From Escherichia phage Fraca, in sequence record LR597645: a stretch of 43,664 nucleotides of DNA, one strand, 5' to 3'. The notes beneath the pieces are model-generated. The model was not told where the DNA came from and did no database searches. It saw nothing but the letters and a program-made list of their open reading frames with translations. Of this stretch, positions 24,218-43,664 are shown piece after piece (the first letter of the stretch is position 1; each line of letters opens with the position of its first letter). Made by a program: the position numbers and the translations under genes.

Positions 24218-24219
24218 TC

Positions 24220-27813: not shown

Positions 27814-28007
27814 TTATCCCATTCATTTTTATGGGCCTCGTTTGCATAGTTGCAGACAAACGCGAGAAGAATGTCGCTAATTTCTCTATACTCGTCATCA
27901 TCAACCGCCGATAACAAACTAGCTGCTTCAACAATCAAGGACATATTCTTGAAAGCATCACAAGGATGGATGGACAACCCCTTAAATGTTTTTATCTTCT
28001 GAGACAT
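27807..28007 (-). CDS. Hypothetical small protein, first gene downstream of the putative PL
   Basis: 66 aa ORF starting about 50 bp left of the OL-like operator cluster. Confidence 0.45.
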   Translation of the reverse strand: MSQKIKTFKGLSIHPCDAFKNMSLIVEAASLLSAVDDDEYREISDILLAFVCNYANEAHKNEWDKC

Positions 28008-28029
28008 TTTCTATCACCTCTGAGTTGAT

Positions 28030-28140
28030 TTGATAGAATGATGATAGAGCCTGCTATTGGTATTTGCAATAGATATTGCTATTTAAAATGCTATTGATTT
28101 TTATGTCTTTGATATCAAAAATAAAAAAAATCTATTGCTG
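28030..28140. promoter_or_regulatory. Putative OL/PL operator-promoter region
   Basis: Multiple CTATTG / CAATAG half-sites (28054-28096, 28132-28138) and palindrome TTTGATATCAAA, mirroring the motifs right of cI. Confidence 0.55.
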
Positions 28141-28426
28141 ATGTGTTTGTAACAGCACGGTAGAAATAATTGTCCTTTAGACAGTGATCTACCAATACAT
28201 GAGATATCGGGAGTTGGAGCATCGAAGCTTGAGAATTAAATGGACTGTGAAAGGGCGAGATACTCGCAGAGAGCAAGAGGGTAGGGTAGGAGTTCCGATC
28301 AGGTAGTCGCCCGCCTGGTTGACTGGTGGTTACTATTGTGGGGGCACATAGAAAACCCGACGCACTGGCCGGGTTAAGAATCCATTCAGCTTGTTATGCG
28401 TAAGTTTTTATTTTAATTTGCATTAT

Positions 28427-29134
28427 TCACCCATGCTTCCTGTAGGTCTGCGGCATGCTGCCGATCACCTTTCCGAAGATGAAAATTTTGTTCATCTCTT
28501 CCTTCTCGATTGGTTCCCATGGTAGATAGGTATGGTTGTCAGAGATAACTAAGAGTTTGTCTTTCATCTTTTGTAAGCGCTTAACATGCGATGTGTCATC
28601 GTAGATGAACGCGTATATACCGTCGCCGTCGAAATGCTGAACGCTGATATCGACGAAGAGTAAGTCCCCTGGCTCTATGGTGCCAGACATGCTATCACCT
28701 CGAACGTTGATGATGCGTATCTGCTCCTGTTTCCGGCCATTAAACATTTGACGGGCATCTTCAACTGAGTATTCCACGGAGCGCAGCACCTCCACGAATT
28801 CGCTGTTAATTATGCCCGGGCCAGCACTTACGGTAAGGTCGAGTACGTCAACTCTGAAGATGGCTGGATCTTTTTTGTTATTCATCGGTGGGGGTGGTTG
28901 TTGGTCGTCACCCCTCATTGGTCCAGTACCGTTTGATAGCCACTCCGAACGAACACCCAGGGCATTAGCTATTTCAACGATTTTGGTTGTGCCTCTAGCA
29001 TTTCCAGATGTTATTCGCCATATGGTTGGTTGTGCCATATTCGCCGCTTTGGCTAACTGACCCTGGCTCATGCCCATCTCATGCATTGCGTAGTTAAGTC
29101 TGTCAGCTAGCGTCTTAAGTGTTCTCTCTTGCAT
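28427..29134 (-). CDS. cI: CI-like repressor (HTH plus S24 LexA-like peptidase domain)
   Basis: ATG at 29134 with GGAGG RBS; N-terminal HTH; C-terminal GDSM...K catalytic dyad motif. Confidence 0.85.
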   Translation of the reverse strand: MQERTLKTLADRLNYAMHEMGMSQGQLAKAANMAQPTIWRITSGNARGTTKIVEIANALGVRSEWLSNGTGPMRGDDQQPPPPMNNKKDPAIFRVDVLDLTVSAGPGIINSEFVEVLRSVEYSVEDARQMFNGRKQEQIRIINVRGDSMSGTIEPGDLLFVDISVQHFDGDGIYAFIYDDTSHVKRLQKMKDKLLVISDNHTYLPWEPIEKEEMNKIFIFGKVIGSMPQTYRKHG

Positions 29135-29179
29135 ATTTATAGCCTCCGCTATCACATTCTAGTCAAGCATGATAAACAA

Positions 29180-29229
29180 GTCTATTGCTCATTCCAATAG
29201 CAATTGCTATTATAAGTTCGATAGCAACT
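29180..29229. promoter_or_regulatory. Putative OR/PRM/PR operator region between cI and cro
   Basis: Overlapping palindromes CTATTGCTCATTCCAATAG (29182-29200), AATAGCAATTGCTATT (29196-29211) and TTGCTAT-N10-ATAGCAA (29204-29227). Confidence 0.6.
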
Positions 29230-29248
29230 GAACGGGATTAGCAAAAAA

Positions 29249-29467
29249 ATGAAATCAGCAATTGAAAGAGCTATTGATGCTGCTGGAGGAGTAAATGCTC
29301 TAGCTCGCGCTATAGGTGTAAAACAACCCTCTGTCTCTCGCTGGAGAAAGGTTGGTGTTGTTGGGGTGGAACATGTGCCTGATGTTGCGGCCTTTACTGG
29401 GATTCCCGCCCATGAACTGAGACCTGACAAACCAAAATTATTCCCTCACCCGGGCAATGAGGTGTGA
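29249..29467 (+). CDS. cro: Cro-like HTH regulator
   Basis: 72 aa divergent from cI across the operator cluster; HTH region GGVNALARAIGVKQPSVSRW. Confidence 0.7.
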   Translation: MKSAIERAIDAAGGVNALARAIGVKQPSVSRWRKVGVVGVEHVPDVAAFTGIPAHELRPDKPKLFPHPGNEV

Positions 29468-29468
29468 C

Positions 29469-29678
29469 ATGTCACACCCAATCACTACCGAAAACCAAAT
29501 TAAGCCATTGGATATCGATTATCGCGATCCGCGCGGTGTGATTGTGCATGTCACCGGCTGGAATCGGGATAAACAGCAGGTGTATTTCACCAGACAGAAT
29601 TATCCGCATGAATGCATGCAGCCTGTCTGGAAGTTCCAACAATATTTTACGAAGGTCTCGGAGGCGCAAAATGCGTGA
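29469..29678 (+). CDS. Hypothetical protein (cII position)
   Basis: 69 aa; ATG at 29469 with GAGGTG RBS, 2 nt after the cro stop. Confidence 0.45.
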   Translation: MSHPITTENQIKPLDIDYRDPRGVIVHVTGWNRDKQQVYFTRQNYPHECMQPVWKFQQYFTKVSEAQNA

Positions 29679-30693
29679 TTACGGAAAGGTGTCTCCTCAC
29701 TTCTGGATTGGCAGAACAGGCAAAGAGCTGCGTCAGGCTGGGCCAGAGTCTCAGCTTGTGGCGTTGTACCTGCTTACCAGTCCGCACGCCAATATGATCG
29801 GTCTTTATTACATGCCCCTTGCGTTCCTGTCTCATGAGACTGGATTAACCTTGGAAGGGGCTAAGAAGGGGCTTAATAGCGCCATTAAAGCCGGGTTTTG
29901 TAAGTACGACGAGCATTCAGAGATGGTGTGGGTCATCGAAATGGCAACGCATCAAATCGGCGAGGCGCTGAAACCCGGAGACAAGCGCTGTACTGGAGTA
30001 CAGAACGAATACAACAAAGTATCGGATAACCTATTTCTTTCAGAGTTTTACGAGAAATATTCGAAGCAGTTCAATATGACCTGTCCCCGTAGTAGTGAGC
30101 TCCAGATCCCGGAAGTAAATGAAGGGGCTTCAAAGGGGCTTGCAAGCCAAGAGCAGGAACAGGAGCAGGAGAAAGAACAAGATCAAACTAATTTGTCCGA
30201 TTCGAATCGGACTGATGGCGATAAACCTGACGAGTCGAAAGGGAAACCTTCACAGGAAAAACCTGATTCAGAATCAGATGATGCTGAAGGCCAAGATCCA
30301 GTCGATGTCGCTTTCGAAAATATTTTTTGGGGGGCAGGTCTGAGAAAGGATGCCAAGGTCAAGGCTAAGTCAGCGTTCAGGACCAAATATCGCGACTGGA
30401 AAAAAGCGAACCGAGGTACGCCTGAGAACTTCGCCGTTATGCTGGCTGAAGATATCAGCCTCCGGGTGAAAACACAGCAAATGGGGTTCGACAAACTCCT
30501 GCCAGCGTCATACCTGAACGGAGAGCGCTGGAACGATGAAAAACCAAATGGAGCTCCTCAGATATCCGCAAGCGCAAACGCCATCGGTGGGACAGGTGCT
30601 TCCTGGTTCGCAAAACCAAGTGACGGTTCGGCTGAGGTATTTATCAGCCAGGCAGCCATTGACCGCATGAAGCGCGGAGCTAACCGCCCATGA
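29671..30693 (+). CDS. Putative replication initiation / DNA-binding protein with acidic low-complexity linker
   Basis: 340 aa from ATG at 29671; lies upstream of the primase-helicase; EQ/D-rich linker around 30130-30300. Confidence 0.45.
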   Translation: MRDYGKVSPHFWIGRTGKELRQAGPESQLVALYLLTSPHANMIGLYYMPLAFLSHETGLTLEGAKKGLNSAIKAGFCKYDEHSEMVWVIEMATHQIGEALKPGDKRCTGVQNEYNKVSDNLFLSEFYEKYSKQFNMTCPRSSELQIPEVNEGASKGLASQEQEQEQEKEQDQTNLSDSNRTDGDKPDESKGKPSQEKPDSESDDAEGQDPVDVAFENIFWGAGLRKDAKVKAKSAFRTKYRDWKKANRGTPENFAVMLAEDISLRVKTQQMGFDKLLPASYLNGERWNDEKPNGAPQISASANAIGGTGASWFAKPSDGSAEVFISQAAIDRMKRGANRP

Positions 30694-30796
30694 AAAGAAT
30701 CCTCAAACGTCTACTGGTTGCTGGCTATAACCGCGGCTTTTTGCGTGAGGAATTCGTGACTATGTGCTTTATAAAATTCGATTTACGGAGTGTGTG

Positions 30797-32668
30797 ATGA
30801 CCCCTGCTGAGTTATCTGAAAAATTATGGGACAACGCCGAAAGAGTTGCGAAATACCTGCTTCCACGAGGACACCTCGAGGGCAAGGAGTGGTGCGCTGG
30901 TAATACCAATGGTGATGCCGGTAAGAGCCTGAAAATTAATCTCGGTGGTAAGAAGACTTGGGCAGATTTTGCAAGCGGCGACAGCGGAGACCTGCTTGAT
31001 CTTTGGGTTCTGGTGCGTAACTGCCAGCTGCACGACGCTATGCGGGAAGCGAAAGAGTTCCTTGGGCTGAAGGACGACGATAACCACTTCGAGGCGAAGA
31101 AAAAAACCTTCTCACGTCCAACCAAAAAAGGCGTTAAAAAGGCGAGCCATTGCTACGACTACCTCTCTTCCCGTGGCATCACCCGAGAGACAGCTGATCA
31201 ATTCCGTGTTTCGGACGCAGTCGTCTGGTACCACGATGAAAACCGCGAAATTCCGGCAGTGGCGTTTCCGTATCTTCGCAACGGTGAGCTTTTGCAGGTA
31301 AAGCGAATCGGCACTGAACGACCAAATGGCAAAAAGTTGATCATGGCTGAAGCTGATTGCGAGCCATGTCTGTTTGGCTGGCAGGCTATGGACGCGAAAG
31401 CTCGCGCTGTTGTGCTTTGCGAAGGAGAGATTGACTGTATGACCTACTCGCAATTCGGTATCAGTGCTCTATCGGTACCGTTCGGCGGTGGAAAAGGGGC
31501 CAAACAGCAATGGATCGAATACGAGTATCACAACCTCGACCGATTCGAAGAAATTTGGTTAAGCCTCGATAACGATGATGTAGGGCGCGAAGCCGCAAAA
31601 GAAATTGCTCGTCGTCTAGGGGAGCATCGTTGCCGCCTGGTAGAGCTGCCGCACAAAGATATCAATGAATGCCTGACCTCCGGGATGAGCGAGGATGAAA
31701 TCTGGCACTACTTGGGGACCGCTAAATTCTTTGACCCTGATGAACTCTGCTCTGCGGGTGATCTCCTTCAGGAAACACTGGATGCGTTCGAGCATCGAGA
31801 CGTTGGATTATTTTCCAGCCCGTGGGATTCGCTGAACAGTAATTTCAAATTCCGCGCCGGCGAGCTGACGCTGGTTAACGGAGTAAACGGCCACGGAAAA
31901 ACCGAGCTGGTGGGACATATCGCCGTCAATGCCATGAGCCAGGGAGTCCGGGTATGCATTGCCTCGCTGGAGCTTAAGCCTGGGAAAATGTTGGCTCGTC
32001 TTACCCGGCAAACCATTTGTAGAAAAAACCCAGAACGTACTGAAATCATCATGACTAACGAGTGGTTTTCTGATCGTCTTTGGGTGTTCAAACTCACCGG
32101 AACAGCCAAGGCCGATCGCCTGCTGGAAATATTTGCCTATGCCAGACGCCGCTATGGAATCGATCTTTTCGTTATCGACAACTTGGCAAAATGTGGACTC
32201 GATGAAGAGGACTACGGTGGACAAAAAGAATTTATCGATACCCTCTGCGACTTTAAAAACGAGCACAACTGCCATGTTCTGCTGGTAACGCATGCCAGAA
32301 AAACAAACGAAGCTGCACCAACAGGGAAAATGGATGTTAAAGGCACTGGCGCTTTAACTGACATGCCCGACAACGTTATGGCCGTCTGGCGTAATATCCC
32401 GCGCGAACTGGCGCAGCGCAAAGCTGAAAGAATGGGGTATGAGAGCCTTGATAAGGACGAACAGACTGCTATCCAAATGCCCGCTTCGATGATCCGCCTG
32501 TTGAAACAACGTGAAGGGGAAGGCTGGATCGGAGACATAGGGGCTAACTTTGATTCCCGCTCACACCAGTTTATCGAGGGTGATAAAGGGCCCTTCAATT
32601 ACTTGGCCGGCAAACAGCAAAGTGAACTTGATATTGAGTGGGAAGCCACCAACGCAACGAGGTATTAA
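30797..32668 (+). CDS. DNA primase-helicase (Toprim plus DnaB/RecA-like ATPase)
   Basis: ATG at 30797; Toprim-like VLCEGEIDCMT; Walker A GVNGHGKTE; Walker B-like LFVIDNL. Confidence 0.75.
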   Translation: MTPAELSEKLWDNAERVAKYLLPRGHLEGKEWCAGNTNGDAGKSLKINLGGKKTWADFASGDSGDLLDLWVLVRNCQLHDAMREAKEFLGLKDDDNHFEAKKKTFSRPTKKGVKKASHCYDYLSSRGITRETADQFRVSDAVVWYHDENREIPAVAFPYLRNGELLQVKRIGTERPNGKKLIMAEADCEPCLFGWQAMDAKARAVVLCEGEIDCMTYSQFGISALSVPFGGGKGAKQQWIEYEYHNLDRFEEIWLSLDNDDVGREAAKEIARRLGEHRCRLVELPHKDINECLTSGMSEDEIWHYLGTAKFFDPDELCSAGDLLQETLDAFEHRDVGLFSSPWDSLNSNFKFRAGELTLVNGVNGHGKTELVGHIAVNAMSQGVRVCIASLELKPGKMLARLTRQTICRKNPERTEIIMTNEWFSDRLWVFKLTGTAKADRLLEIFAYARRRYGIDLFVIDNLAKCGLDEEDYGGQKEFIDTLCDFKNEHNCHVLLVTHARKTNEAAPTGKMDVKGTGALTDMPDNVMAVWRNIPRELAQRKAERMGYESLDKDEQTAIQMPASMIRLLKQREGEGWIGDIGANFDSRSHQFIEGDKGPFNYLAGKQQSELDIEWEATNATRY

Positions 32669-32669
32669 A

Positions 32670-32981
32670 ATGGATCGCCTAATTAGAGAAATGTCGTATC
32701 TCTTTACCAAGCAGCGTTTTATGGAGCTTCAGGAAACGGCAAAAGACATCGCAATCGGTCATAGTGATTTTCCTGAGTGTTTCGGTCTTATTGCTGACGC
32801 CATCGCTGAATTTGTTGAAGACACTCCTGATGATGAGTGGCGAGAGCATGAAAAAATCCTTATGCACTACGTTGCTATGCGTGTTCTGACGCTGTGGGGT
32901 AACGGCGATAAAGTGACTGATGTCCAGTGGGCACACCCTGGCTGGTTTGGCACTGCTGAAAAGGGGGAAACCATTCAATGA
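32670..32981 (+). CDS. Hypothetical protein
   Basis: 103 aa; ATG at 32670 two nt after the primase-helicase stop; overlaps the next start. Confidence 0.5.
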   Translation: MDRLIREMSYLFTKQRFMELQETAKDIAIGHSDFPECFGLIADAIAEFVEDTPDDEWREHEKILMHYVAMRVLTLWGNGDKVTDVQWAHPGWFGTAEKGETIQ

Positions 32982-33760
32982 AGTTGGAAGCATCACTAAA
33001 ACACTTTAGCCCTCAGGGTGTGCACATCAGCGACGACGTGAAAGGAACCTCTCCGGATCGTCTCACCGGCACTGATGTAATGGCGGCAATTGGCACCACC
33101 AGCAGCCGTGCGCGCTTCGGACTGGCGGCGTTCTTCGGTAAAGCGGGAATCAGCAAAACGGATGAACAGCTCGCAGTTCAGGCGCTGGCGCGATATGCGA
33201 TGGATGTCGCACCGAAGAATGTTCGCAAAGCAGCTGGTGGGCAGTTCGGATGGTGCATGCAGATGCTGGCACAATTTGCCTTTGCTGATTACTCCCGTTC
33301 AGCGGCTACCAGCGTGACGTGTCACAGCTGCAGTGGTACCGGGTTTATCTTCGGTAATGAGGATGTGGTTAAACATCCTGGTATTTTCGATGCAGACGGT
33401 GCCGAAGTGGTGGCTCCGAAGATAAAAAATGAGCTGGTGAAAAGGGTTTGCGGAACATGCGGAGGAAAGAAAGTGATCCTTGCCCGGTGCAGGTGCGGCG
33501 GTAAAGGCGAAGTGTTGGACCGCAAAGCGACTAAAGACAGCGGCGCACCGGTTTTCAAAACGTGTGAACGTTGCTCTGGTAATGGCTTCTCTGCTATCTC
33601 CTCGGCGACGGTACACCGTGCCATTCTGAAGCGTCTCCCTGACCTCCATCAGTCCTCATGGTCACGCAACTGGAAACCCTTTTATGAAATGCTGGTGGAC
33701 ACTCTGCGCCAGGGGGAGCGTCATGCAGCAGTGGAATTTGAGAAGGCGACAACTTATTAA
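32978..33760 (+). CDS. Putative late antiterminator Q-like protein with DnaJ-type zinc finger repeats
   Basis: 260 aa with four CxxCxGxG motifs; sits between replication genes and the late promoter/lysis region. Confidence 0.5.
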   Translation: MKLEASLKHFSPQGVHISDDVKGTSPDRLTGTDVMAAIGTTSSRARFGLAAFFGKAGISKTDEQLAVQALARYAMDVAPKNVRKAAGGQFGWCMQMLAQFAFADYSRSAATSVTCHSCSGTGFIFGNEDVVKHPGIFDADGAEVVAPKIKNELVKRVCGTCGGKKVILARCRCGGKGEVLDRKATKDSGAPVFKTCERCSGNGFSAISSATVHRAILKRLPDLHQSSWSRNWKPFYEMLVDTLRQGERHAAVEFEKATTY

Positions 33761-33802
33761 TATGATCGGAACAAATGGCGACACTTTTTTGCACGTTAGT
33801 GT

Positions 33803-33840
33803 TGACTTTGCATAAAACTGTCCTGTATGCTTCTGATTAT
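33803..33840 (+). promoter_or_regulatory. Candidate late promoter (PR'-like)
   Basis: TTGACT at 33803-33808, then 17-18 nt spacer and weak -10 (TATGCT); followed about 40 nt later by a terminator. Confidence 0.35.
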
Positions 33841-33876
33841 GGAGTATAGCGCCTGTAGATAATTAACCTCTAAAAG

Positions 33877-33903
33877 CCCGCCACGTTGCGGGTTTTTTTA
33901 TTT
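33877..33903 (+). terminator. Intrinsic terminator (tR'-like) in the late leader
   Basis: CCCGCCACGTTGCGGG hairpin followed by an 11-nt T-rich tract. Confidence 0.7.
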
Positions 33904-34195
33904 CCAGCAAGGTTTTTCTTCATTGCGTTTGTTATGTTGTGTTTTTTAACTGAGGGTCAGTTGATGAGCGCAGATGAAAACTTGTTGAGTAAAATTCAGG
34001 AAGTACGGACGGTAGAGGATGTGGAGCAAGTCAATTTGGGCCTTTCTAAAGGCTGGGTGATTTTGATGATCACCGAGAGCTCTACAGTCTGGGAAGATGG
34101 CAGCAAAAGCAGCCTTGTTACATATCACATGGGCAAGCCGAAGGCATTGCCGGTCTGATCAAGCCTTACCAAATCAAAAATTTCAATCATATATA

Positions 34196-34219
34196 GGCCA
34201 CCTCACGGTGGCCTTTTTT
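34196..34219 (+). terminator. Intrinsic terminator
   Basis: GGCCACCTCACGGTGGCC hairpin followed by a T6 tract. Confidence 0.7.
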
Positions 34220-34436
34220 GTTTCCCCTCGTTCTGAGAGGACTCATGGCAATGATGCATTGACCGTAGGAATGAATTCGGCGTAACTTATTTATGTGGTG
34301 AATTCTTTCTAAGCGAAAGGGCGTTCCAGTCAACTGCTATTTGCAGGTATGCGCGCGTCTTTGCTAACTGGGGCAGAGACACCGGGAGGCACCCGGCACC
34401 ATGACAACAACAATACAATTTTGAAATTCCTTGAGA

Positions 34437-34464
34437 GCCTGCCATAAAACGCAGGCCTTTTTTT
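34437..34464 (+). terminator. Intrinsic terminator
   Basis: GCCTGCCATAAAACGCAGGC hairpin followed by a T7 tract. Confidence 0.6.
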
Positions 34465-34613
34465 ATGGTTTTGTTAACTGCTGCTACGCTTTGAGTTGTG
34501 GGAAGTTCCTGAATGCCCGGTGGTTCTCCTGAACCTGGCGTGAATCAGCCGATACAGCTTCATCCGGGATGCAAGATCAACTCACACCTACCTCACAAAT
34601 AGTCAACTCATTG

Positions 34614-34641
34614 GCCCGCTTCATAAGAGCGGGCTTTTTTT
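34614..34641 (+). terminator. Intrinsic terminator upstream of the holin
   Basis: GCCCGCTTCATAAGAGCGGGC hairpin followed by a T7 tract. Confidence 0.7.
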
Positions 34642-34682
34642 ATTCTTACGCACAACACCCGCACACAGCGAGGTGAGAGACC

Positions 34683-34985
34683 ATGAAAATGAATGATTCA
34701 GGGAACATTTTCACGCAGTTCTTCGCGTGGGTAGCGGCTCTGGCGTCTGCAATCGGATTTACCACTCAGGATCTGGTGTTCATGTTCTTTGGCGCGGCTG
34801 GTCTGCTTTTATCCCTCGCCTCCTACGTGAACGGGCGTGTGGATGCCCGCCGAAAGCGCAGGGAAGACGAAAAGCGCACCCAGATGGTTAATGACTACCT
34901 GAAAGGTGTAGGTGATAAGCCTCTCCATGAACGGCCAGCAGCGGCAAGTGTAGTTGTTGAGGCCTTACAAAAGGAAAGTGAGTAA
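34683..34985 (+). CDS. Holin (class II, pinholin-like)
   Basis: 100 aa with two TM segments and a charged C-terminus; MKM dual-start-like N-terminus; immediately precedes the SAR endolysin. Confidence 0.65.
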   Translation: MKMNDSGNIFTQFFAWVAALASAIGFTTQDLVFMFFGAAGLLLSLASYVNGRVDARRKRREDEKRTQMVNDYLKGVGDKPLHERPAAASVVVEALQKESE

Positions 34986-35521
34986 TGGGAACCAGGGCAA
35001 AGTTAAGCGCGGCAGTTCTGGGGCTCGTCCTCGCTGGAGCTCCGGCTTCAGTTATCCTCGATAAGTTTCTGGATGAGAAGGAGGGCAACAGCCTGACGGC
35101 CTATAAAGATGGCTCCGGGATCTGGACTATTTGTCGTGGTGCCACAATGGTTGACGGTAAGCCAGTTGTGCAGGGCATGAAGTTAACGCAAGCCAAATGC
35201 GACAAGGTTAATGCCATCGAACGGGATAAGGCTCTGGCGTGGGTTGACCGCAATATCAAAGTTCCTCTGACCGAACCGCAGAAAGCCGGAATCGCATCTT
35301 TCTGCCCGTACAACATAGGCCGAGGCAAATGCTTCCCATCGACGTTCTATAAGCGTCTTAATGCAGGCGACCGCAAAGGGGCCTGCGAGGCTATCCGATG
35401 GTGGATAAAAGATGGAGGCCGTGACTGCCGACTGACAAAGGGTCAGAAGAATGGGTGCTACGGGCAGGTTGAACGCCGTGACCAGGAAAGTGCACTTGCC
35501 TGCTGGGAGATAGAAAAGTGA
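34985..35521 (+). CDS. SAR endolysin (lysozyme, GH24-like)
   Basis: 178 aa; N-terminal Gly/Ala-rich weakly hydrophobic signal-anchor segment; lysozyme-like [20 protein letters not shown]. Confidence 0.75.
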
Positions 35522-36063
35522 ATCCGTCTCCGTTAATTGCAGCAATAAAAGCCTGGTGGAAGCCGTTTTTAGTATTGATTGTTGTGGTCGCCGCGTTTAT
35601 CGCTGGCAATGTCTGGAGTAACCGGGCATGGGAAAAAAAGTGGGCAGACCGTGATAGTGCCGAGTCCTCGCAACAAGTCAACGCGCAGACCGCCGCCAGA
35701 ATGATAGAGCAAGGGCGAATTATTGCCCGTGATGAGGCCGTTAAAGATGCTCAAGAGAAAGCAGCTGCCGCGCGTGATGTTTCTGCCCGTTTGGCTGGCA
35801 CTGTTAGTCAGCTGCAGCAACAGGCAAGAAAACTCGCCACCCGCCTGGACGCCGCAAAGCACACCGCAGATCTTGCCGCTGCCGTCAGAGGCAAAACAGC
35901 CGGAGCCAACGCCACAATGCTCGCCGACATGCTCGGAGGTCTTGCAGCAGAAGCTAAATATTATGCTGAACGATCTGACGAAAGCTATCGAGCAGGAATG
36001 ACCTGTCAGCGTATTTATGACTCGGTGAGAGAGTCAAACAACCAATCTGGAGCCTCGCAATAG
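35518..36063 (+). CDS. Rz-like i-spanin
   Basis: 181 aa; N-terminal TM segment then Ala/Gln-rich coiled coil; GTG start overlapping the endolysin stop. Confidence 0.7.
35777..36001 (+). CDS. Rz1-like o-spanin lipoprotein embedded in the +1 frame of Rz
   Basis: ATG at 35777 encodes [14 protein letters not shown] (lipobox) followed by a Pro-rich sequence, wholly inside the Rz gene. Confidence 0.65.
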
Positions 36064-36074
36064 TGGGGCTTTTT
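36052..36074 (+). terminator. Terminator hairpin, copy 1 of a duplicated element
   Basis: GCCTCGCAATAGTGGGGC (7-bp stem with wobble pairs, AAUA loop) followed by T5. Confidence 0.55.
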
Positions 36075-36092
36075 ACTAACCGAGGAAACCAA

Positions 36093-36317
36093 ATGTCCGT
36101 TCGCGCTAAATTCCGCTGCCACTTCATTCAGAAAGCAGAAGACGATTCACACCGCACAATCTACATGAGTCCTGTAACTGCAGATACCACCGAAAACAAG
36201 TCGTGGTCAAAGTATACACCTGGCGGCCAGCTGCAGATGGTCATCTCGAACCCTGCAGCGTTCGAACTCTTCGAGCAAGGCAAAGAATACTTCATCGACA
36301 TACAACCGGCGAAGTAG
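36093..36317 (+). CDS. Hypothetical protein (moron bracketed by duplicated terminators)
   Basis: ATG at 36093 with GAGGAAACC RBS; 74 aa. Confidence 0.5.
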   Translation: MSVRAKFRCHFIQKAEDDSHRTIYMSPVTADTTENKSWSKYTPGGQLQMVISNPAAFELFEQGKEYFIDIQPAK

Positions 36318-36331
36318 TAAAGAAATTTCCA

Positions 36332-36354
36332 GCCTCGCAATAGCGGGGCTTTTT
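36332..36354 (+). terminator. Terminator hairpin, copy 2 of the duplicated element
   Basis: GCCTCGCAATAGCGGGGC followed by T5; near-identical to 36052-36074. Confidence 0.6.
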
Positions 36355-36381
36355 ATTACCAGAAGAAGCAGGAGAAGAAGC

Positions 36382-36609
36382 ATGTTAACAGTAAAAGTAA
36401 TGTCGCCTGGCGGCGGCGAAGAGATTCATTGTGGTCTGAGTGTGGGTTTCAATCCGGCGCAGCAGAGTATCGCCGTGTCCGGTATGGACAAAAATGTTTT
36501 CCTGAAACCCGGTGAGGTTGCCTACGTGATGAACCAGAACGGGAAGACGGTATCTCGTTACGAGCATATCGCGCGTCAGGAAGTGCTGCATAATGCGGTG
36601 GAATCGTAG
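36382..36609 (+). CDS. Hypothetical protein
   Basis: 75 aa; GGAGAAG RBS. Confidence 0.5.
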   Translation: MLTVKVMSPGGGEEIHCGLSVGFNPAQQSIAVSGMDKNVFLKPGEVAYVMNQNGKTVSRYEHIARQEVLHNAVES

Positions 36610-36699
36610 CCATTACAAAGCTCACCTGCTGGTGGGCTTGATAATGGTTATCCCAACGAGCGGATAAGACAATCAACATACCCACCAGAGGATTAGAGC

Positions 36700-36894
36700 A
36701 TGGCAAGCATGCCAATGTCCGTTCATCACGAAGGGAAAGACTGGTACCCGTTCTCTGTTAACTTTTCCGATGCAGATGGGCGTTCTTTCTCCTTCACTAT
36801 ATACGCCGTAAACCGTGAGCATGCCTCCTATATTGTCCAGGAGATACGCGAGACGGCTACTCTCGGCGATCAGATTGACAGCATCGTCAAATAG
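36700..36894 (+). CDS. Hypothetical protein
   Basis: 64 aa ORF. Confidence 0.4.
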   Translation: MASMPMSVHHEGKDWYPFSVNFSDADGRSFSFTIYAVNREHASYIVQEIRETATLGDQIDSIVK

Positions 36895-37015
36895 CCAACC
36901 TTGAGCGCATCGCACGCGCACATCAAAGAAAGTCTTTCAGCTGTGAGCCTGGGCAAACCGTTAACTTTAGGCGGCTTTGCCGTGCGACAGGCTCACGCCT
37001 AAAAGGAAACACCAA

Positions 37016-37858
37016 ATGAAACATTTACCACTTAAAGCCGTTATGACAGGGCTGGAAATCATCGAAACTGATGAAGGTTGTGAGCTGCACAGTCCAGCTG
37101 GCGAGGCGAAATACGATGCATGGGGTGCCCGCCGTGAAGTGAACGGCATACCGGAATACTTCCCGTTATCGATTTCAATGAAAAAGCGTGTACCTGCTGC
37201 AACAGACGTTAAAAAGGCTGAGAACATTACTTTATCCGGCGCTGCGACGGATGTTCTGTATTCGCTGTTCTTTCGTGGTGCATTGCAATGCGCTGAGCTG
37301 CCATCTAAATCTGGTGCTGCTGAGCTTCGCGAACTGGGGTTCGCGGTAACCCGATATACAGCGACGGAATATCTGAAGGAAAGTTATTTCACCTTCCTGA
37401 CCGCTGAAGGGCAGGAATTTGCCATTAAGCACCTGGCAGATACGCGCTTTGGTAAGCCGGTTGATAAACAGTATCGCGGCGCAATCACTATTGGCGTTGA
37501 GCTGGACACCTCAGACGTACAAAAAGCTATTGATGAGATGGACGAAAAAATCCGTAACAGCGAGGCATTCAAGATCCTTAAAGATGGCTGGAAGCATGAA
37601 AAAAACGGAACGATGATTATTAATAAAGGCCAGGTGTTCATTCGCGATGAGAAGAGTGCAGTAACCGTTCGCGTCGGTAAATTTGGTATTCATAGCGGCG
37701 TCGATATAAACCTTGATGAAATCATAAAAAACGCCCTAGCTTCTGATGCCGCTATTCAGCAAATCAGAAAGGATATTGCAACGGTTGTGGAAGATGAGAT
37801 TGCCAAAAAGCTTAAGCCCGGTGGCACAATATGGGATTGCTTACGACGTGGATTCTGA
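37016..37858 (+). CDS. Hypothetical protein upstream of the glycosyltransferase
   Basis: 280 aa from ATG at 37016; AAGGAAA RBS; no recognisable motif. Confidence 0.55.
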   Translation: MKHLPLKAVMTGLEIIETDEGCELHSPAGEAKYDAWGARREVNGIPEYFPLSISMKKRVPAATDVKKAENITLSGAATDVLYSLFFRGALQCAELPSKSGAAELRELGFAVTRYTATEYLKESYFTFLTAEGQEFAIKHLADTRFGKPVDKQYRGAITIGVELDTSDVQKAIDEMDEKIRNSEAFKILKDGWKHEKNGTMIINKGQVFIRDEKSAVTVRVGKFGIHSGVDINLDEIIKNALASDAAIQQIRKDIATVVEDEIAKKLKPGGTIWDCLRRGF

Positions 37859-37869
37859 CGGGAGGTTTT

Positions 37870-39327
37870 ATGCAGGTCACTATTGATGGTGTCCCGTTTG
37901 TTCCTGCGTGTGCTTCAGCGTCACGGGTTGGCATTGCCATTACTACCCACAATAGGCCAGACGTTTTAAAGCGCGCCATTGAGCAGCACATGAAACATCT
38001 GCCAGCCGGTGCGCTGGTGGTTGTTATCGATGATGGTTCCTACCCTGCAGCAGTAGTGCCTGACGGCGTGCAGCTGCTTCGCCATGAAAAATCACTCGGC
38101 ATTGTTGCCTCGAAGAACGCCAGCCTGTCAGCCCTGATGGATGCCGGGTGCGAGCATCTTTTTCTGTGGGATGATGATGCATGGCCCATCGCCGATAACT
38201 GGCACCTCCCTTACATCGAATCACCTGAGCCACACCTGGCTTACCAGTTTCTCGATCTGGCTGGCCGCAACAAGCTGAATGACCTTTCGGTGCTTTACCG
38301 TGATGATAAGCATGTTGCTTACACCGGGCAGCGTGGCGTGATGCTTTACTACCACCGCAGTGCCATTGAGAAGGTTGGAGGATTCGATCCGGTATATGGT
38401 CGCGGCATGTACGAACACAGCGACCTCGCCCTGCGCATTCATAACGCTGGATTGACTACGTGGTCTTATGCCGATGTGACTGATTCAGAAAAGCTGATTC
38501 ATTCTCTCGATGAGCATGAGGCCGTGGAGCGTTCGGTACCGAAACCAGACCGTCAGGCGCTGGTGGAACGTAACGTAAAAATCCACAACGAACGGCGTGA
38601 TACCGGGTTTACCGGTTATGTGGAGTACCGGCGGCAACGCGATGTGGTAATCACTACGCTACTGACCAGTCAGCCAGATCCGCAGCGTGGTACCAGACTG
38701 AAGCCAGAGCAGGCGCTTATTGCGAAATGGGTCGCATCTATCAAAGGCGGCGAAGCGGTAATTCTCGCTGACGAGTTTGAATATTCTCCACCGGGCCAGC
38801 TTACGGTGCGTGTGCCTGCGGTCGATATGAACGTGTATTTCCGCCGCTGGCTGCATATCTGGCAGCACCTGCGTGATCATCCTGAATACCGGTTCGTCTG
38901 GTGTACCGATGGAACCGATGTCGAAATGCTTCGCGCGCCGTGGGAAGAAATGGAAGCCGGAAAGGTGTATGTCGGTTCAGAACCAAAGACCTACGCCGAT
39001 ACCTGGGCAAAGCAGAATCATCCGGAGCGCATCTATCAGGAGTTCATTGAAGCGCACCGAAACGATGTAATGCTTAACGCTGGGCTGCTGGGTGGTACCC
39101 GCGCTGATGTGATGGCGTTCGCCCACGGAATTATTCGCCTTTACTACCGGATCGAGAGTTATCGTTTCTGGAAGAAAGAACAGGCTGGCACCGCGGTGGG
39201 GGATATGATCGCTTTTGGCATTGTCGCTAAGTCTTTTGGCGATCGCATTGTCACCGGCCCGCGCATCCACACAGTTTTTAAGACTGATGGTATTGGCAAA
39301 GAATGCGCTTGGTTTAAACACAAATAG
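37870..39327 (+). CDS. Glycosyltransferase family 2 (GT-A fold) protein with extra C-terminal domain
   Basis: ATG at 37870 with GGAGG RBS; GT2-like motifs GIAITTHNRP, VIDDGS and WDDDAW; about 250 aa C-terminal extension. Confidence 0.7.
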   Translation: MQVTIDGVPFVPACASASRVGIAITTHNRPDVLKRAIEQHMKHLPAGALVVVIDDGSYPAAVVPDGVQLLRHEKSLGIVASKNASLSALMDAGCEHLFLWDDDAWPIADNWHLPYIESPEPHLAYQFLDLAGRNKLNDLSVLYRDDKHVAYTGQRGVMLYYHRSAIEKVGGFDPVYGRGMYEHSDLALRIHNAGLTTWSYADVTDSEKLIHSLDEHEAVERSVPKPDRQALVERNVKIHNERRDTGFTGYVEYRRQRDVVITTLLTSQPDPQRGTRLKPEQALIAKWVASIKGGEAVILADEFEYSPPGQLTVRVPAVDMNVYFRRWLHIWQHLRDHPEYRFVWCTDGTDVEMLRAPWEEMEAGKVYVGSEPKTYADTWAKQNHPERIYQEFIEAHRNDVMLNAGLLGGTRADVMAFAHGIIRLYYRIESYRFWKKEQAGTAVGDMIAFGIVAKSFGDRIVTGPRIHTVFKTDGIGKECAWFKHK

Positions 39328-39333
39328 GCTGAT

Positions 39334-39843
39334 ATGAAAAAGACCAGAACTTTCAGTGAAAGATTCTGGGAAAAGGTCGTTGTTGCCTCTCCAGATGAAT
39401 GCTGGATCTGGAATGCGGCTAAGAGAAAGAGTCCTATAGGCGGTGGGAAGTATTTATTTTACGGGCATTTGAAAGCTGGAGTTACTGCTGGCGGGCCTGG
39501 AAAGATGATTCTTGCACACAGAGCTTCATGGGAACTTTGCAACGGACCTATCCCAGACGGATATTTGATTGACCATACCTGCCATAACACTCTTTGCGTC
39601 AACCCAAAACATCTTCGAATAGCAACACCAAAACAAAACGCTGAAAACAGGCATCGTCACTCCTCTGCGTCAGGATTTCGTGGCGTTACTTGGAATCGGG
39701 ATATGAAGAAATGGTGTGCTCACTATAAAGAGCATGGTACCCGTCATCACCTTGGTTACTTTGACTGTAAGCATGAAGCCGCTGAGGTTGCACGACGAGC
39801 CCGTAATAAGGTGTTTACCCATAATGATGCTGACAGATATTAA
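39334..39843 (+). CDS. HNH endonuclease with AP2-like DNA-binding domain
   Basis: 169 aa; HNH-like region around IDHTCHNTLCVNPKHLRIATPKQN; AP2-like FRGVTWNRDMKKWCAHYKEHGTRHHLGYF. Confidence 0.7.
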   Translation: MKKTRTFSERFWEKVVVASPDECWIWNAAKRKSPIGGGKYLFYGHLKAGVTAGGPGKMILAHRASWELCNGPIPDGYLIDHTCHNTLCVNPKHLRIATPKQNAENRHRHSSASGFRGVTWNRDMKKWCAHYKEHGTRHHLGYFDCKHEAAEVARRARNKVFTHNDADRY

Positions 39844-40414
39844 GTTTGTGGTGGTCGGTCATGTCTCTCGCATAGGTCATGCACAACGTCTTGCTGCGCT
39901 GCTGGATGCTCATCTGCTTATTGATGACGGTAACCACGGTGCGAACTGGAATCACCGCCGCGCGCTTGAGTGGGCAGCAGAACAAACCTGCCGGGTAGTT
40001 GTTGTTGAAGATGATGCGATGCCAGTGGACTTGTTCTTCACTTCAGTCACGAGCTGGCTTAACCGCTTCCCGGAATCTCTGGTGAGTTTTTACCTGGGCA
40101 CTGGCCGACCACCACAGTATCAGATGCAGGTAGCCGAACGTCTGATAGTTGCTGATAAGACTCAGGCTGACTACATCACACTGCCGCGGCTGATACACGG
40201 CGTTTGTTATAGCGTACCTTCTCAGCATATTGAACGAGTCCTTTCTCGATGGGACAGCAGCAAGCCCGCCGATTACGCTGTGGGTGATGCCTGGGGCGGT
40301 TCAGTGGTCTATCCGTGTTACTCGCTGGTGGATCATGCTGATGGTGAGCCTGTTGAGCGTCACCCTGATTCAGCGCAACGAACAGAACGCCGTCGAGCGT
40401 GGAGGTTAGCCTGA
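39824..40414 (+). CDS. Hypothetical protein, possibly nucleotide-sugar transferase-like (start uncertain)
   Basis: ATG at 39824 or 39827; VVVGHV...LLIDDG and VVVVEDDAMP resemble a GT-A-like Rossmann core. Confidence 0.4.
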   Translation: MMLTDIKFVVVGHVSRIGHAQRLAALLDAHLLIDDGNHGANWNHRRALEWAAEQTCRVVVVEDDAMPVDLFFTSVTSWLNRFPESLVSFYLGTGRPPQYQMQVAERLIVADKTQADYITLPRLIHGVCYSVPSQHIERVLSRWDSSKPADYAVGDAWGGSVVYPCYSLVDHADGEPVERHPDSAQRTERRRAWRLA

Positions 40415-40770
40415 TGCCTGCGTTAATACCGAGAGCATGCCGCAAGCGTGGCTGTCCTGGCACAACCACAGACCGCTCAGGCTATTGCCCCAAACACCTT
40501 AACGAAGGCTGGCAGCAGCATCAGCGGGGACAGAGCAGGCATCAGCGCGGTTATGGCAGTAAGTGGGACAGGCTGCGCCCAATCGTTCTCGACAGAGATA
40601 AACACCTTTGTCAGGAATGCCTGCGAAATGGAAGGTATACACCCGCTGAGACGGTGGACCACATAAAGCCGAAAGCTCACGGTGGCACTGACGATCTTTC
40701 TAATCTGGAATCAATTTGCCGCGGCTGCCATAAAGCTAAGACAGCACGCGAGCGCCTGAACAGAAATTAA
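40414..40770 (+). CDS. HNH endonuclease (HK97 gp74-like)
   Basis: ATG at 40414 with GGAGG RBS; Cys pairs and HIKPKAHGG...CRGCH HNH motif. Confidence 0.7.
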   Translation: MPALIPRACRKRGCPGTTTDRSGYCPKHLNEGWQQHQRGQSRHQRGYGSKWDRLRPIVLDRDKHLCQECLRNGRYTPAETVDHIKPKAHGGTDDLSNLESICRGCHKAKTARERLNRN

Positions 40771-40964
40771 GGGGTATTCGGAAAAGAGTGTGTACAGATC
40801 TTAGGTGTAGGTATAGAATCTAGTTGTTGCGATTCGGATTATAGTGAGTATCAGCAACATGAAAAAGGGCCGGGTGGCCGCTACCAACGAACCCACCCAG
40901 CCCAGCCAGTGGAACGAGTTAACCACTGGCTATGTGATTAGACCAAAAACGAGGAGAGTTGAGA

Positions 40965-41231
40965 ATGAATAGCCATCTAAAAGTTGAGCTTAACGCCACC
41001 AAGTTAGTTATCTCTATAGGCAAAGAAACTCTGTTACATGCTATTGAAACAGGTCGGTCTTATGGCCTTGGTGACATCAAAATCACAGACAAAGAGCTGT
41101 TTCTTGAAGAGGTTGTTCGTGAGCTCAACGCTGAGAGTGAGGATGGATCCACCCTAATACATGAGGCACTTGACCAAGCGGTTAGTAACGCACTTGATAA
41201 TGGCGCTGATGGCGTTGAATACGATGATTAA
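40965..41231 (+). CDS. Hypothetical acidic protein
   Basis: ATG at 40965 with GAGGAGAG RBS. Confidence 0.45.
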   Translation: MNSHLKVELNATKLVISIGKETLLHAIETGRSYGLGDIKITDKELFLEEVVRELNAESEDGSTLIHEALDQAVSNALDNGADGVEYDD

Positions 41232-41246
41232 TAGGGGGGAGGCGTG

Positions 41247-41465
41247 ATGATTACGTTAAGCGGTAAAGACTTGATGGAGCTACTTGATTACATCAGCCCA
41301 GACCGAGAGAGCGACCCTGAGCAGCTGGAGACTGAGGTAAGCGTCATCAAGATGGACAAGACGTTTGCCTCTAGCGAGGGGGATATCAGGCCGGCAGGTG
41401 TGTACGCATATCTGACAGAGTACCCTGAAGAAGGGCTTTATGGCCCGATTGGATCAGTTGAATAA
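41247..41465 (+). CDS. Hypothetical acidic protein
   Basis: ATG at 41247 with GGGGGAGG RBS. Confidence 0.45.
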   Translation: MITLSGKDLMELLDYISPDRESDPEQLETEVSVIKMDKTFASSEGDIRPAGVYAYLTEYPEEGLYGPIGSVE

Positions 41466-41477
41466 GCCGGGGGAACG

Positions 41478-42791
41478 TTGCTCAACCTACCAAATGTTGT
41501 GATTACCGGCAGGGATGAGGATGAGGAGAGTTACCTCATCCATGCCGAATCAGAAGCCACAGTCAGGTTGTGCCCTGGCTGTGGCTCTTTCAATTCCGTG
41601 GTGATCGGGAGCCGTAATCAGCCGTTCGTAGACACGCAGATGCATGCCAAGACGGTGCGGATCCTATTCACCCGCAAGCGCCTTAAGTGCAAGGACTGCG
41701 GAAAGACCTACTTTGAGCTGCTTGAGTGGCTACATGAGGACTTCCGCATGCCAACCCGCACCGTTGACTACATCATCAAGCGAGCGGCCAGAGTGCCGTT
41801 CCTGAGCGTAGCCAGCGAGCTGGGCGTTGATGAGAAGACCGTGCGCAACGTGTTCGCCAACTATGTGGAGTTCATCGAGAGCAAACACGACTGGCAGGCT
41901 CCGAGGGTACTCGGGATCGATGAAACACATTTCAGCCAAAAGATGCATCTAGTCCTGACGGATATCGAGCGAAAGACCCTGCTCGACCTCCGGCGAGACC
42001 GCTCTCAAGAGGCAGCCAAAAGCGCCATCGTTCGCCTTCGTGGATGGGCGGGCATTGAGATTGTCTGCATGGATATGTGGCGACCGTACAGGAACGCAGT
42101 GCGTGACATCCTGCCCAATGCAGTGGTTGTCATCGACAGGTTCCACGTTGCCAGGATGGCGAACGAGGCAATGGAGGCGGCCCGCAAGGGCCTGCGAGCA
42201 TCACTATCGAAGAAGGAGCGGATCAGGTTGAAGGATGACCGCAAGATACTGCTCAAGCGCCGAGACAACATCACCGGACTGAATGAGCTCGCCAGCTTCC
42301 ATTTCTGGACTGAGGAATATCCAGAGCTGATGTCTGTCTATAACGCCAAAGAGGCGTTCCTAGACCTGTGGCTCATGCCTACCAGGGACGATGCAATGGA
42401 GTATTGGGAGAACTGGCTGCGTATCACTGACAGCGAAACCAAGAAGCATTTCTCCCAGGCGGTCACGGCAATGAGGAACTGGCATGAGGAGATCTTCAAC
42501 TGGTGGGACTTCCGGTACACGAACGCGCTGACTGAAAGCCTGAACAACCTGATCAAGGCAGCTTTCAGATCTGGTCGTGGTTACAGTTTTGAGGTGCTCA
42601 GGGCCAAGCTGTTGTTCACGAAAGGGGGTCTTGAGACCACCGCAGAATCTCTCAACAAGCCGAGACCAGAACCCACTGAGATGATCCTGATCGAGGAGCC
42701 TGAGCTGTTTCTCCATGGCACCAGAATTGACATGCCAGTGCTTGCTTTTGATCTGGTTGCGGATCATACAGATACACACAACCAGAGTTGA
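41478..42791 (+). mobile_element. ISL3-family transposase gene (IS element or remnant; element ends not identified)
   Basis: 437 aa; N-terminal zinc ribbon CPGCGS...CKDCGK; DDE region with GIDETHF and VVVIDRFHV; TTG or GTG start. Confidence 0.7.
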
Positions 42792-42799
42792 TCTGATAA

Positions 42800-42833
42800 G
42801 AGCATTGATTTGATTGATATTTAATCAATGCTC
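42800..42833. repeat. Perfect 11-bp inverted repeat hairpin just after the transposase gene
   Basis: GAGCATTGATT-N12-AATCAATGCTC. Confidence 0.8.
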
Positions 42834-42872
42834 ACTCTAATCCGCATACCCAAATTAAGTAACGAGGTGAAG

Positions 42873-43523
42873 ATGACTGAATCGAAACATGGTTCAGGGC
42901 TTCCGCACGCCCATGCTGCCTGCATTGTGGATGGATGCGAATTATCGGTACGATCCCGTAACAGCCACTACTGTGAAAAGCATTACATGCGCGTCCGGCG
43001 TCATGGAACGACAGAGAAGCTCAGCACAAGAAAGGATGGCAAGCTGGAGCACACTGGCGGATATCTGCTGGTGTATGCGCCCGATCATCCTTTGGCATGT
43101 GGGAGTCCTCGTGTTTACGAGCACCGGAAAGTCTATTACGACAAACATGGGGCTGGACCGTTCCGTTGTCACTGGTGTGCAAAAACCGTTGGCTGGGACA
43201 CCCTTCACATCGACCACCTCGATGACTGTAAGACCAATAACGAGCCTGACAATCTTGTGCCAAGTTGCCCTGTGTGCAATCAGAAGCGAGGCGTAGACAA
43301 GATGAGAAAGACAATGCGAGAGAACTCCGACCGCAGATATACCGCTCACGGCAAGACGATGTGTCTTAACGAATGGGCGGATTACCTGGGTATTTCGAGA
43401 AACTCCATTGAGTATCGACTGAAGGCAGGCTGGGACATCAGTAAGGTGTTCAGCCCTCGCATTGGTAACAGTGGTCCCCCGAGCCGGAAACTGGCGAAAA
43501 TCGTGCATGAGTCGGTTAAATGA
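42873..43523 (+). CDS. HNH endonuclease adjacent to the terminase
   Basis: ATG at 42873 with GAGGTGA RBS; HNH motif CHWCAKTVGWDTLHIDHLDD...CPVCNQKRG. Confidence 0.7.
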   Translation: MTESKHGSGLPHAHAACIVDGCELSVRSRNSHYCEKHYMRVRRHGTTEKLSTRKDGKLEHTGGYLLVYAPDHPLACGSPRVYEHRKVYYDKHGAGPFRCHWCAKTVGWDTLHIDHLDDCKTNNEPDNLVPSCPVCNQKRGVDKMRKTMRENSDRRYTAHGKTMCLNEWADYLGISRNSIEYRLKAGWDISKVFSPRIGNSGPPSRKLAKIVHESVK

Positions 43524-43664
43524 TATCTGCTCTCATTTGCGCGGTCTTGGGGAGGGCGGGTAAAAACCTCAGGGAAATCACCCTAAAGGACCGCCGCCTA
43601 ACCTCTTTTCACATCGCCGCAGGTTAGAAAACTTTTTTTAGGGGTCCCCCACTCGATGATTAAT
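43524..43664. other. Non-coding packaging (cos/pac) region continuing into 188-201 upstream of terS
   Basis: Non-coding stretch between the HNH and small terminase genes with GGGGTCCCCC palindrome and T7 tract; exact site undetermined. Confidence 0.4.

Follow-up and report, generated by a model that had tools for sequence, protein, structure and literature searches.

According to the family definition of ISfinder, an ISL3 insertion sequence (IS) is 1.3-2.3 kb long, has terminal inverted repeats of 15-39 bp, generates an 8-bp target-site duplication and encodes one DDE transposase. Passenger-carrying members have also been reported within the family, with ISPpu12 of Pseudomonas putida among them. 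Outside this family, small accessory genes expressed early from promoters of their own are found in phage morons, anti-defence islands and the cassettes of plasmid leading regions, which move by illegitimate or homologous recombination alone, and DDE transposase genes are found in tailed-phage genomes in the Mu-like transposable phages and in laboratory IS insertions in lambda. In this study, we consider a transposase gene in the genome of Escherichia phage Fraca (sequence record LR597645; 43,664 nucleotides, hereafter the window), which a first-pass annotation made from the sequence alone had assigned to the ISL3 family as part of an element with undefined ends. The ends can be defined, at 40772 and 42851, and the 2,080 bp between them are almost certainly a bona fide ISL3 insertion.

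In a search for repeats, 40832-40851 paired with 42828-42847, and a further similar copy was located at 40776-40794. Across the window there are exactly two occurrences of GGGTATNCGGA, in inverted orientation: one on the plus strand at 40772, the other on the minus strand at 42851. The left and right terminal inverted repeats (IRL and IRR) are imperfect repeats of 26 nt that have identical GGGTAT termini and start GGGTAT(T/G)CGGA, and the same octamer, AAATTAAG, flanks them on both sides; an exact match of eight letters at fixed ends is expected by chance with a probability of about 1.5e-5. The first-pass annotation had seen by eye neither terminal inverted repeats nor a target-site duplication. 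Both exist, with the left end 706 bp upstream of the point at which that annotation began, and its end coordinate, 42833, is explained by the 3′ arm of a hairpin that stops there. The two small ORFs (open reading frames) that it had described upstream of the transposase gene are real and acidic, but they are passengers enclosed by the element rather than neighbours of it, and the 11-bp hairpin that it had described downstream is also real, but it is part of the right end, over the inner IRR, rather than a structure nearby.

The empty site provides the most direct view of the insertion. The element and one copy of the octamer were removed in silico, and the reconstructed sequence was compared with complete E. 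coli genomes. Prophages of E. coli KCJ3K291 and QL57EC (loci L006 and L008) contain ...GAACAGAAATTAAGTAACGAGGTGAAGATGACTGAATCG..., in which the junction is identical and AAATTAAG occurs once, and a prophage of W409 has the same uninterrupted arrangement in a more diverged form. Because the uninterrupted site in the E. coli prophages is identical across the junction, we regard the element as a mobile insertion and not as a domesticated gene or a remnant. Thus, of the three possibilities listed in the first-pass annotation, only the intact IS agrees with the ends, the 8-bp duplication and the exact empty site. The insertion point is the 13-bp spacer that runs from the stop codon of one HNH endonuclease gene to the Shine-Dalgarno sequence of a second, just upstream of cos. 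The final codon and the stop codon of the first gene fall within the target site, whereas the Shine-Dalgarno sequence and ATG of the second stand intact directly after the duplication, and AAATTAAGTAACGAGGTGAAGATGACTG is unchanged in the empty sites. The duplication restores both signals, and neither flanking gene is disrupted. A precise loss of the element would leave a junction that reads CAGAAATTAAGTAACGAGG.

The ISL3 hallmarks that had been attributed to the transposase ORF, an N-terminal zinc ribbon and a DDE region, were confirmed, together with a helix-turn-helix (HTH) domain. All profiles scored above their cut-offs: DDE_Tnp_ISL3 (PF01610; 7e-57, 193 bits against a cut-off of 23), Zn_ribbon_ISL3 (PF14690; 1.5e-7, 32.2 bits against 25.5), HTH_Tnp_ISL3 (PF13542; 6.7e-7, 29.1 bits against 27.4) and the NCBIfam model NF033550, 'ISL3 family transposase' (272 bits against 180). 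When 20 ISL3 transposases with identities down to 36% were aligned, D148 was at least 90% conserved and D220 and E353 were invariant; from general knowledge of the family, we take these residues to be the catalytic triad. The protein is full length relative to homologues at 60-98% identity and has a C-terminal extension of about 55 amino acids past the Pfam domain that is kept across the clade described below. A search of PDB sequences with the transposase gave no match. A nearly identical transposase cluster, P0001 (98%), is represented by a 1.7-kb contig without genomic context.

Related loci were drawn from phage records, IMG/VR, reference genomes, assemblies and one metagenome scan. Full-length homologues with 64-71% identity occur in the Vibrio phages K256 (and 16 sister records), Seahorse and Val-yong3, and in a protein search about 37 clusters, mostly from Vibrio, Enterovibrio and Shewanella, form a tight clade at 60-98% identity, after which identity falls sharply to 53% or less; the clade as a whole was found mainly in Vibrio, Aeromonas and Shewanella. 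The same terminal repeats were located in 16 elements (60-93% identity) and are conserved. Each of the 16 is flanked by a perfect 8-bp duplication, and each occupies a different, non-homologous site. The first-pass annotation had held that the same gene, at the same position and without IS ends in related phages, would speak for domestication and against mobility; what we find is that relatives of Fraca lack the insertion and that relatives of the transposase occupy 16 different sites. The duplications are 79% A+T, and their positions 4 and 5 are always A or T. The targets of three independent insertions are AAATTAAG in Fraca and in L047 (6171-6178) and AAGTTAAG in L050 (2856-2863), and in Fraca and L047 a TAA and a Shine-Dalgarno sequence follow the target site; there are hints that the sub-lineage of Fraca, L047 and L050 prefers targets at gene ends. 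One further locus, L011, is a 5′-truncated remnant of an element of this clade. Many clade transposases (P0003-P0027) lie on element-sized contigs (2.0-2.7 kb); because assemblers yield contigs of this kind for multi-copy repeats, some genomes or samples probably hold several copies.

Compared with the ISL3 definition, the Fraca element conforms in its transposase domains, DDE residues, repeat length, A+T-rich 8-bp duplication and total length. However, it contains more than a transposase: two passenger ORFs and a structured leader lie upstream of the transposase gene, the left end has a second subterminal repeat, the right end has a palindrome, and the transposase has the C-terminal extension. 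Judged by its sequence, it is a transporter IS or a small unit transposon that carries passenger genes. An ISL3 element of 2.53 kb that is present in four copies in Pseudomonas putida likewise shows the GGGTAT termini, with an ORF placed between IRL and the transposase gene, but its transposase is only 37% identical to that of Fraca, and it gives no sign of cargo turnover or phage association.

The left end is laid out in the same order throughout the clade: the terminal repeat, a promoter-like site, the second repeat copy (IR-b), a variable cargo slot and the transposase gene. The left terminal repeat is closed across the clade by an invariant GTGTGTAC, and in 13 divergent left ends a TAnnnT hexamer (TATAAT, TATATT, TATAGT, TAGAAT and others) follows about 17 nt past the invariant TGTACA. 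IR-b, which is more similar to IRR than IRL is, lies about 56 bp inside IRL in 13 of 13 aligned elements, and the first cargo part starts directly after it. Because these positions are conserved across diverged spacers, we infer that the putative inward promoter is real and that the second repeat copy is placed like an operator. A promoter-like site on the minus strand at 40838-40865 (TTTTCA-16-TATAAT, 10/12), directed outward from IR-b toward the upstream HNH gene, is restricted to the GGATTATAG variant, is absent in the CGTAAAAG subgroup and is probably incidental. At the right end, the 3′ arm of the palindrome overlaps the inner half of IRR, and the arms show compensatory changes in most of 13 aligned right ends (GAGCATTGATT, GAGTATTGATTA, GGGTATTGATTA), with an imperfect palindrome in a few. 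A strong hairpin in the 5′ coding region of the transposase gene recurs at the same position, with differing sequence, in every subgroup (L001, L002, L035 and others; z from -2.9 to -5.9), and it may act to attenuate transcription or translation of the transposase gene. The element of Seahorse (L002) has two left-end modules in tandem (3741-3822 and 4143-4222), each with a terminal repeat, a -10 hexamer and a second repeat copy, and an acidic ORF of 97-101 amino acids lies between them; the outer module alone pairs with the duplication, and the arrangement suggests that cargo was captured via an alternative, more distant left end.

Features of the Fraca element and of its flanks, in coordinates of the window
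Feature	Position	Strand	Basis or remark
HNH endonuclease, flanking phage gene	40399..40770	+	PF01844, 1e-16; outside the element
Target-site duplication (8 bp), left copy, AAATTAAG	40764..40771	.	same 8-mer at 42852-42859
Left terminal inverted repeat (IRL), GGGTATTCGGAAAAGAGTGTGTACAG	40772..40797	+	19/26 match to the reverse complement of 42826-42851
Putative inward sigma-70-like promoter	40791..40819	+	consensus scan; -35 TGTACA (within IRL), 17-nt spacer, -10 TAGAAT
Subterminal second repeat copy (IR-b), ATTCGGATTATAGTGAGTAT	40832..40851	+	same orientation as IRL
Non-coding leader, first cargo part	40867..40958	+	conserved; hairpins at 40867-40903 and 40905-40930, then a Shine-Dalgarno sequence
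Cargo ORF1, 88 amino acids	40965..41231	+	hypothetical protein of Fraca; acidic (isoelectric point 4.5)
Cargo ORF2, 72 amino acids	41247..41465	+	homologues in Aeromonas phages; acidic (isoelectric point 4.1)
ISL3-family transposase, 437 amino acids, TTG start	41478..42791	+	Pfam, NCBIfam, conserved DDE
Strong hairpin in the transposase 5′ coding region	41555..41586	+	over the zinc-ribbon codons; terminator-like, z = -4.25
Right-end palindrome (11-bp hairpin)	42800..42833	+	arms 42800-42810 and 42823-42833; -15.8 kcal/mol, z = -4.4 relative to shuffled sequences
Right terminal inverted repeat (IRR), GGGTATGCGGATTAGAGTGAGCATTG on the minus strand	42826..42851	-	paired with IRL
Target-site duplication (8 bp), right copy, AAATTAAG	42852..42859	.	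single copy in empty sites
Second HNH-like protein, flanking phage gene	42874..43523	+	weak HNH match, 7e-4, below cut-off; outside the element

The slot between the second repeat copy and the transposase gene holds different genes in different members of the clade. A D12 (Dam-like) methyltransferase is found in K256, L016 and L017, an N6_N4 methyltransferase in L010 and L050, the restriction-alleviation protein Lar (37.5 bits against a cut-off of 28.6) with two small ORFs in L047, and a PAPS-reductase-like protein, recognised by a PHROG match, in L009. The element of L046 has the same length as that of L009 (2,328 bp) and a near-identical left end, and it contains an unannotated ORF of 284 amino acids. 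Fraca, Seahorse, Val-yong3 and L036 carry small acidic or Cys-rich proteins. The closest comparisons are the most informative ones. The element of L032, in a P2-like prophage of Aeromonas veronii, is 93% identical to that of Fraca over the left end, the leader and ORF1, and again over the transposase gene and the right end, with a zinc-finger/HTH-like ORF of 145 amino acids in place of ORF2; the swap is bounded exactly by the ORF1 stop codon and the transposase start codon. The metagenomic lambdoid locus L050 has a transposase gene that is 92% identical at the DNA level and a methyltransferase as its sole cargo. Three elements with transposase DNA that is 92-93% identical therefore differ in cargo, which indicates that cargo turns over far more rapidly than the backbone changes and that the breakpoints coincide with gene boundaries. 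Two unrelated methyltransferases of the cargo, encoded at 3974-5008 of L001 (D12) and 84-1025 of L010 (N6_N4), have a common tail of 72-77 amino acids that is 47% identical (residues 268-344 and 236-312, respectively). The tail directly precedes the transposase gene and is absent from the methyltransferase of L050, and it may be a module of the element and not of the enzymes.

The cargo of the Fraca copy begins with a leader that shares 84-90% identity with intergenic DNA from IncA/C plasmids and from circular phage-like replicons of 38-39 kb of Aeromonas, and a megablast of the element against plasmids gave a 100-nt leader match and nothing else. This leader of about 92 nt stands upstream of unrelated ORFs in those plasmids and replicons and in two IMG/VR contigs, the loci outside Fraca being L004 (4001-4103), L005 (4001-4093), L029-L031, L042 and L043. 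Its second hairpin has three covarying pairs, and an Rfam search of 40300-43664, which includes the leader, returned no match at E<=1. The leader could be a mobile 5′ leader or a regulatory RNA for accessory genes. An ORF of 42 amino acids over it (40844-40972) was rejected as a gene because its frame is broken by an indel in the plasmid copies. ORF1 is 93% identical to an ORF in the A. veronii copy and has PHROG matches of unknown function. Its family comprises 811 cluster representatives, in which it occurs as a stand-alone protein or as a C-terminal domain, and has no Pfam model; the larger homologues have no Pfam match apart from one RNase_T fusion. The structure model of ORF1 is of low confidence (predicted local distance difference test score, pLDDT, 61). 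The model of ORF2 is confident (pLDDT 86.5), and at E<=0.001 it has no PDB match and a single viral match, to an uncharacterised protein. ORF2 homologues occur in the early region of a Mu-like prophage of Aeromonas and in accessory regions of the 38-39 kb phage-like contigs of Aeromonas, where Sequestin-domain and methyltransferase genes are also present, and related Aeromonas replicons found through the leader match have a Lar gene in the corresponding region. For both ORFs the closest homologues come from the accessory regions of phages of Aeromonas, and these genes, together with the closest copies of the element, point to an Aeromonas origin of the Fraca element.

The elements lie mostly in phage DNA. 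About two-thirds of them reside in phages, prophages or phage-plasmids of lambdoid, P2-like, N15-like and Vibrio phage types. The context is that of a lambdoid phage or prophage in Fraca and L050, a lambdoid-type phage contig in L047, P2-like prophages in L016, L032 and L037, Vibrio phages for the K256 type, Seahorse and Val-yong3, and IMG/VR viral contigs in L009, L010 and L012; a phage-plasmid carries L044, of which the right end only was recovered and which stands outside the 16. Plasmid-like or large replicons carry L017 and L046, and the context is plainly chromosomal in L018, L019, L035 and L036. Of the 12 loci obtained by searches that extended beyond phage collections, about half belong to a phage, a prophage or a phage-plasmid, which in an informal comparison is well in excess of the fraction of a genome that prophages usually make up.

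These observations can be combined in the following way. The element transposed between the two HNH genes of Fraca, duplicating AAATTAAG, and would still be competent for transposition. Host RNA polymerase would start at the left-end promoter and transcribe cargo and transposase as a single operon, while the second repeat copy, through operator-like binding, and the hairpin in the transposase 5′ region, through attenuation, would hold the output of transposase low. The cargo would serve the carrier phage as early counter-defence or host-takeover genes. We consider it very likely that the Fraca element is a complete passenger-carrying ISL3 element, with transposition competence and the left-end promoter included in that joint statement. 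A wider proposal is that the whole clade acts as a phage-adapted cassette shuttle, in which a transposon with a host-type promoter and a recombination-prone slot moves counter-defence genes, from orphan methyltransferases and Lar to small acidic proteins of the ORF1 and ORF2 kind, among unrelated lambdoid, P2-like, N15-like phage-plasmid and Vibrio phage lineages. In lambda-type DNA ejection, the cos-proximal right end, where the Fraca element lies, enters the cell first; if ejection of Fraca is lambda-like, its cargo would be expressed before restriction acts. We advance this proposal tentatively and hold it to be doubtful.

Several facts weigh against one part or another of this picture. Transposition is seen only as the footprints of past events, that is, as duplications and an empty site. 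The transposase has a TTG start codon, and the terminal repeats match at only 19 of 26 positions. When the Fraca sequence alone was scanned for promoters, 2 were found against 2.0 expected from shuffles. ORF1 and ORF2 have no match to a family of known function in Pfam, NCBIfam or PHROGs and no match to a solved structure. The enrichment in phages is partly a sampling effect, since two of the collections searched are phage-specific, and four elements lie in ordinary chromosomal contexts. Furthermore, the P. putida element has an ORF upstream of its transposase gene, and the basic layout is therefore neither new nor unique to phage-borne members.

An alternative explanation concerns the function of the cargo. 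Methyltransferases and Lar are classical anti-restriction functions, and orphan D12 and N6_N4 methyltransferases and Lar are the anti-restriction family matches among the relatives, with none for ORF1 or ORF2. We put the chance that the cargo of the clade is counter-defence at somewhat short of even; for ORF1 and ORF2 themselves, where this reading depends on the genes that accompany them, our confidence is lower. The cargo might instead consist of transposition accessories or regulators, or of neutral hitch-hikers gained by recombination, which we think possible though on the whole unlikely. Such a role would suit the lack of functional matches for both ORFs, the HTH-like tail shared by some cargo proteins just before the transposase gene, the zinc-finger/HTH appearance of the ORF that replaces ORF2 in A. 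veronii, and the presence of cargo in chromosomal members as well. However, near-identical elements differ in their cargo, which speaks against an essential role in transposition, and the cargo that can be identified is repeatedly linked to DNA modification or anti-restriction (two methyltransferase families, Lar and the PAPS-reductase-like protein). In Aeromonas phages, Mu-like ones among them, ORF2 homologues moreover lie in early or accessory regions where no IS is present.

The element might also be structurally complete but dead, a recent insertion whose transposase or ends have since become inactive. The TTG start, the imperfect repeats and a very stable hairpin within the 5′ coding region would fit such decay, and no second copy was found in the Fraca sequence or, by megablast, in 5,426 complete E. 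coli genomes, which offered neither a source nor a second insertion site. However, the ORF is full length with conserved D, D and E residues, the duplication is still perfect, and the same imperfect repeat pattern and hairpin position are common to every relative, which makes them family traits rather than signs of decay. We therefore consider a dead element improbable. An origin of the insertion in the laboratory or in the isolation host, rather than in nature, is a remote prospect: lambdoid phages are well known to receive IS hops while they are propagated, and Fraca is a singleton isolate, but the nearest relatives of the element are in Aeromonas and in metagenomes, and its absence from the 5,426 genomes makes a standard E. 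coli host an unlikely donor. Finally, a domesticated transposase, that is, an immobile IS-derived phage gene with, for example, a packaging role beside the HNH and terminase genes, could draw on the location among HNH and packaging genes near cos and on the close homologues in several phages, but it is contradicted so strongly by the intact repeats, the perfect duplication, the exact empty site, the Fraca relatives that lack the gene and the homologues at 16 unrelated positions, each with its own duplication, that we give it almost no weight.

The window is a complete cos-to-cos genome of a lambdoid phage of the HK97/mEp235-like type. Over its left 24 kb it matches, at 86-92%, the structural genes of a group of phages that includes mEp235, mEp390 and HK542, its right part, to about 40405, matches the regulatory, lysis and glycosyltransferase genes of these phages, and its final 79 nt match the cos-proximal end of mEp235; a megablast of 40700-43664 against phages gave no match beyond these 79 nt. 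Long segments of 24001-39327 are 88% identical to Aeromonas phage AsXd-1, and together with the Aeromonas-nearest IS, leader and both cargo genes they suggest gene flow between Aeromonas and enterobacterial lambdoid phages. Fraca was isolated from infant gut samples as a plaque-forming temperate siphophage, and the insertion is therefore tolerated by the phage; the authors proposed an origin of the phage outside E. coli and did not mention the transposase (PMC6969025). The position between HNH genes given in the first-pass annotation holds on both sides. The homologue of the upstream gene in E. coli prophages adjoins a second HNH gene and the small terminase gene, the E. coli homologue of the downstream gene carries an HNH endonuclease annotation, and in the prophages with an empty site the two HNH genes are followed immediately by those for the small and large terminase subunits. 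The true start of the downstream gene is probably the ATG at 42874 and not 42828, which lies inside the right inverted repeat. A third HNH gene (39334-39843; HNH_3 and AP2 domains, of the homing-endonuclease type) lies between the glycosyltransferase genes and the packaging HNH gene, and the right end of Fraca thus holds three HNH genes and one IS inside 4.3 kb.

The comparison with the systems named at the outset can now be made more precise. The Fraca cargo is predicted to resemble morons, anti-defence islands and leading-region cassettes in consisting of small, early-expressed accessory genes with a promoter of their own, and the same leader and ORF types are found in accessory regions of Aeromonas phage-like replicons and IncA/C plasmids. 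Unlike those cassettes, that of Fraca lies between transposon ends, and it is moved by DDE transposition, which leaves an 8-bp duplication. Unlike the transposase of Mu-like phages, that of Fraca does not replicate or integrate the phage, which is a cos-packaging lambdoid. The genome paper of Seahorse read the homologous transposase as a phage DNA integration function and as evidence for lysogeny (PMC7012835). The terminal repeats and the GCCATTTC duplication present there identify it as an IS insertion and do not support an integration function. In Fraca, Seahorse, Val-yong3 and the K-series Vibrio phages, the gene is annotated simply as 'transposase'. Literature searches, in which ISfinder was not covered so that an IS name may exist, gave no description of the phage association of this clade, its left end with a promoter and a second repeat, its rapid cargo exchange or its anti-restriction content.

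For Fraca, the question of the transposase has an ordinary answer: it belongs to an intact ISL3 element, and the small ORFs and the hairpin are parts of it. The pattern across the clade is less ordinary, in that one IS backbone, often 92-93% identical in DNA, carries differing cargo in different phages, and the cargo that can be identified is anti-restriction. If it is true that the cargo aids the evasion of defence, DDE transposition would give counter-defence genes a path between phage families that lack the homology needed for recombination. New anti-defence proteins could then be sought in the cargo slot, among them ORF1, with its approximately 800 unannotated clusters, and ORF2.

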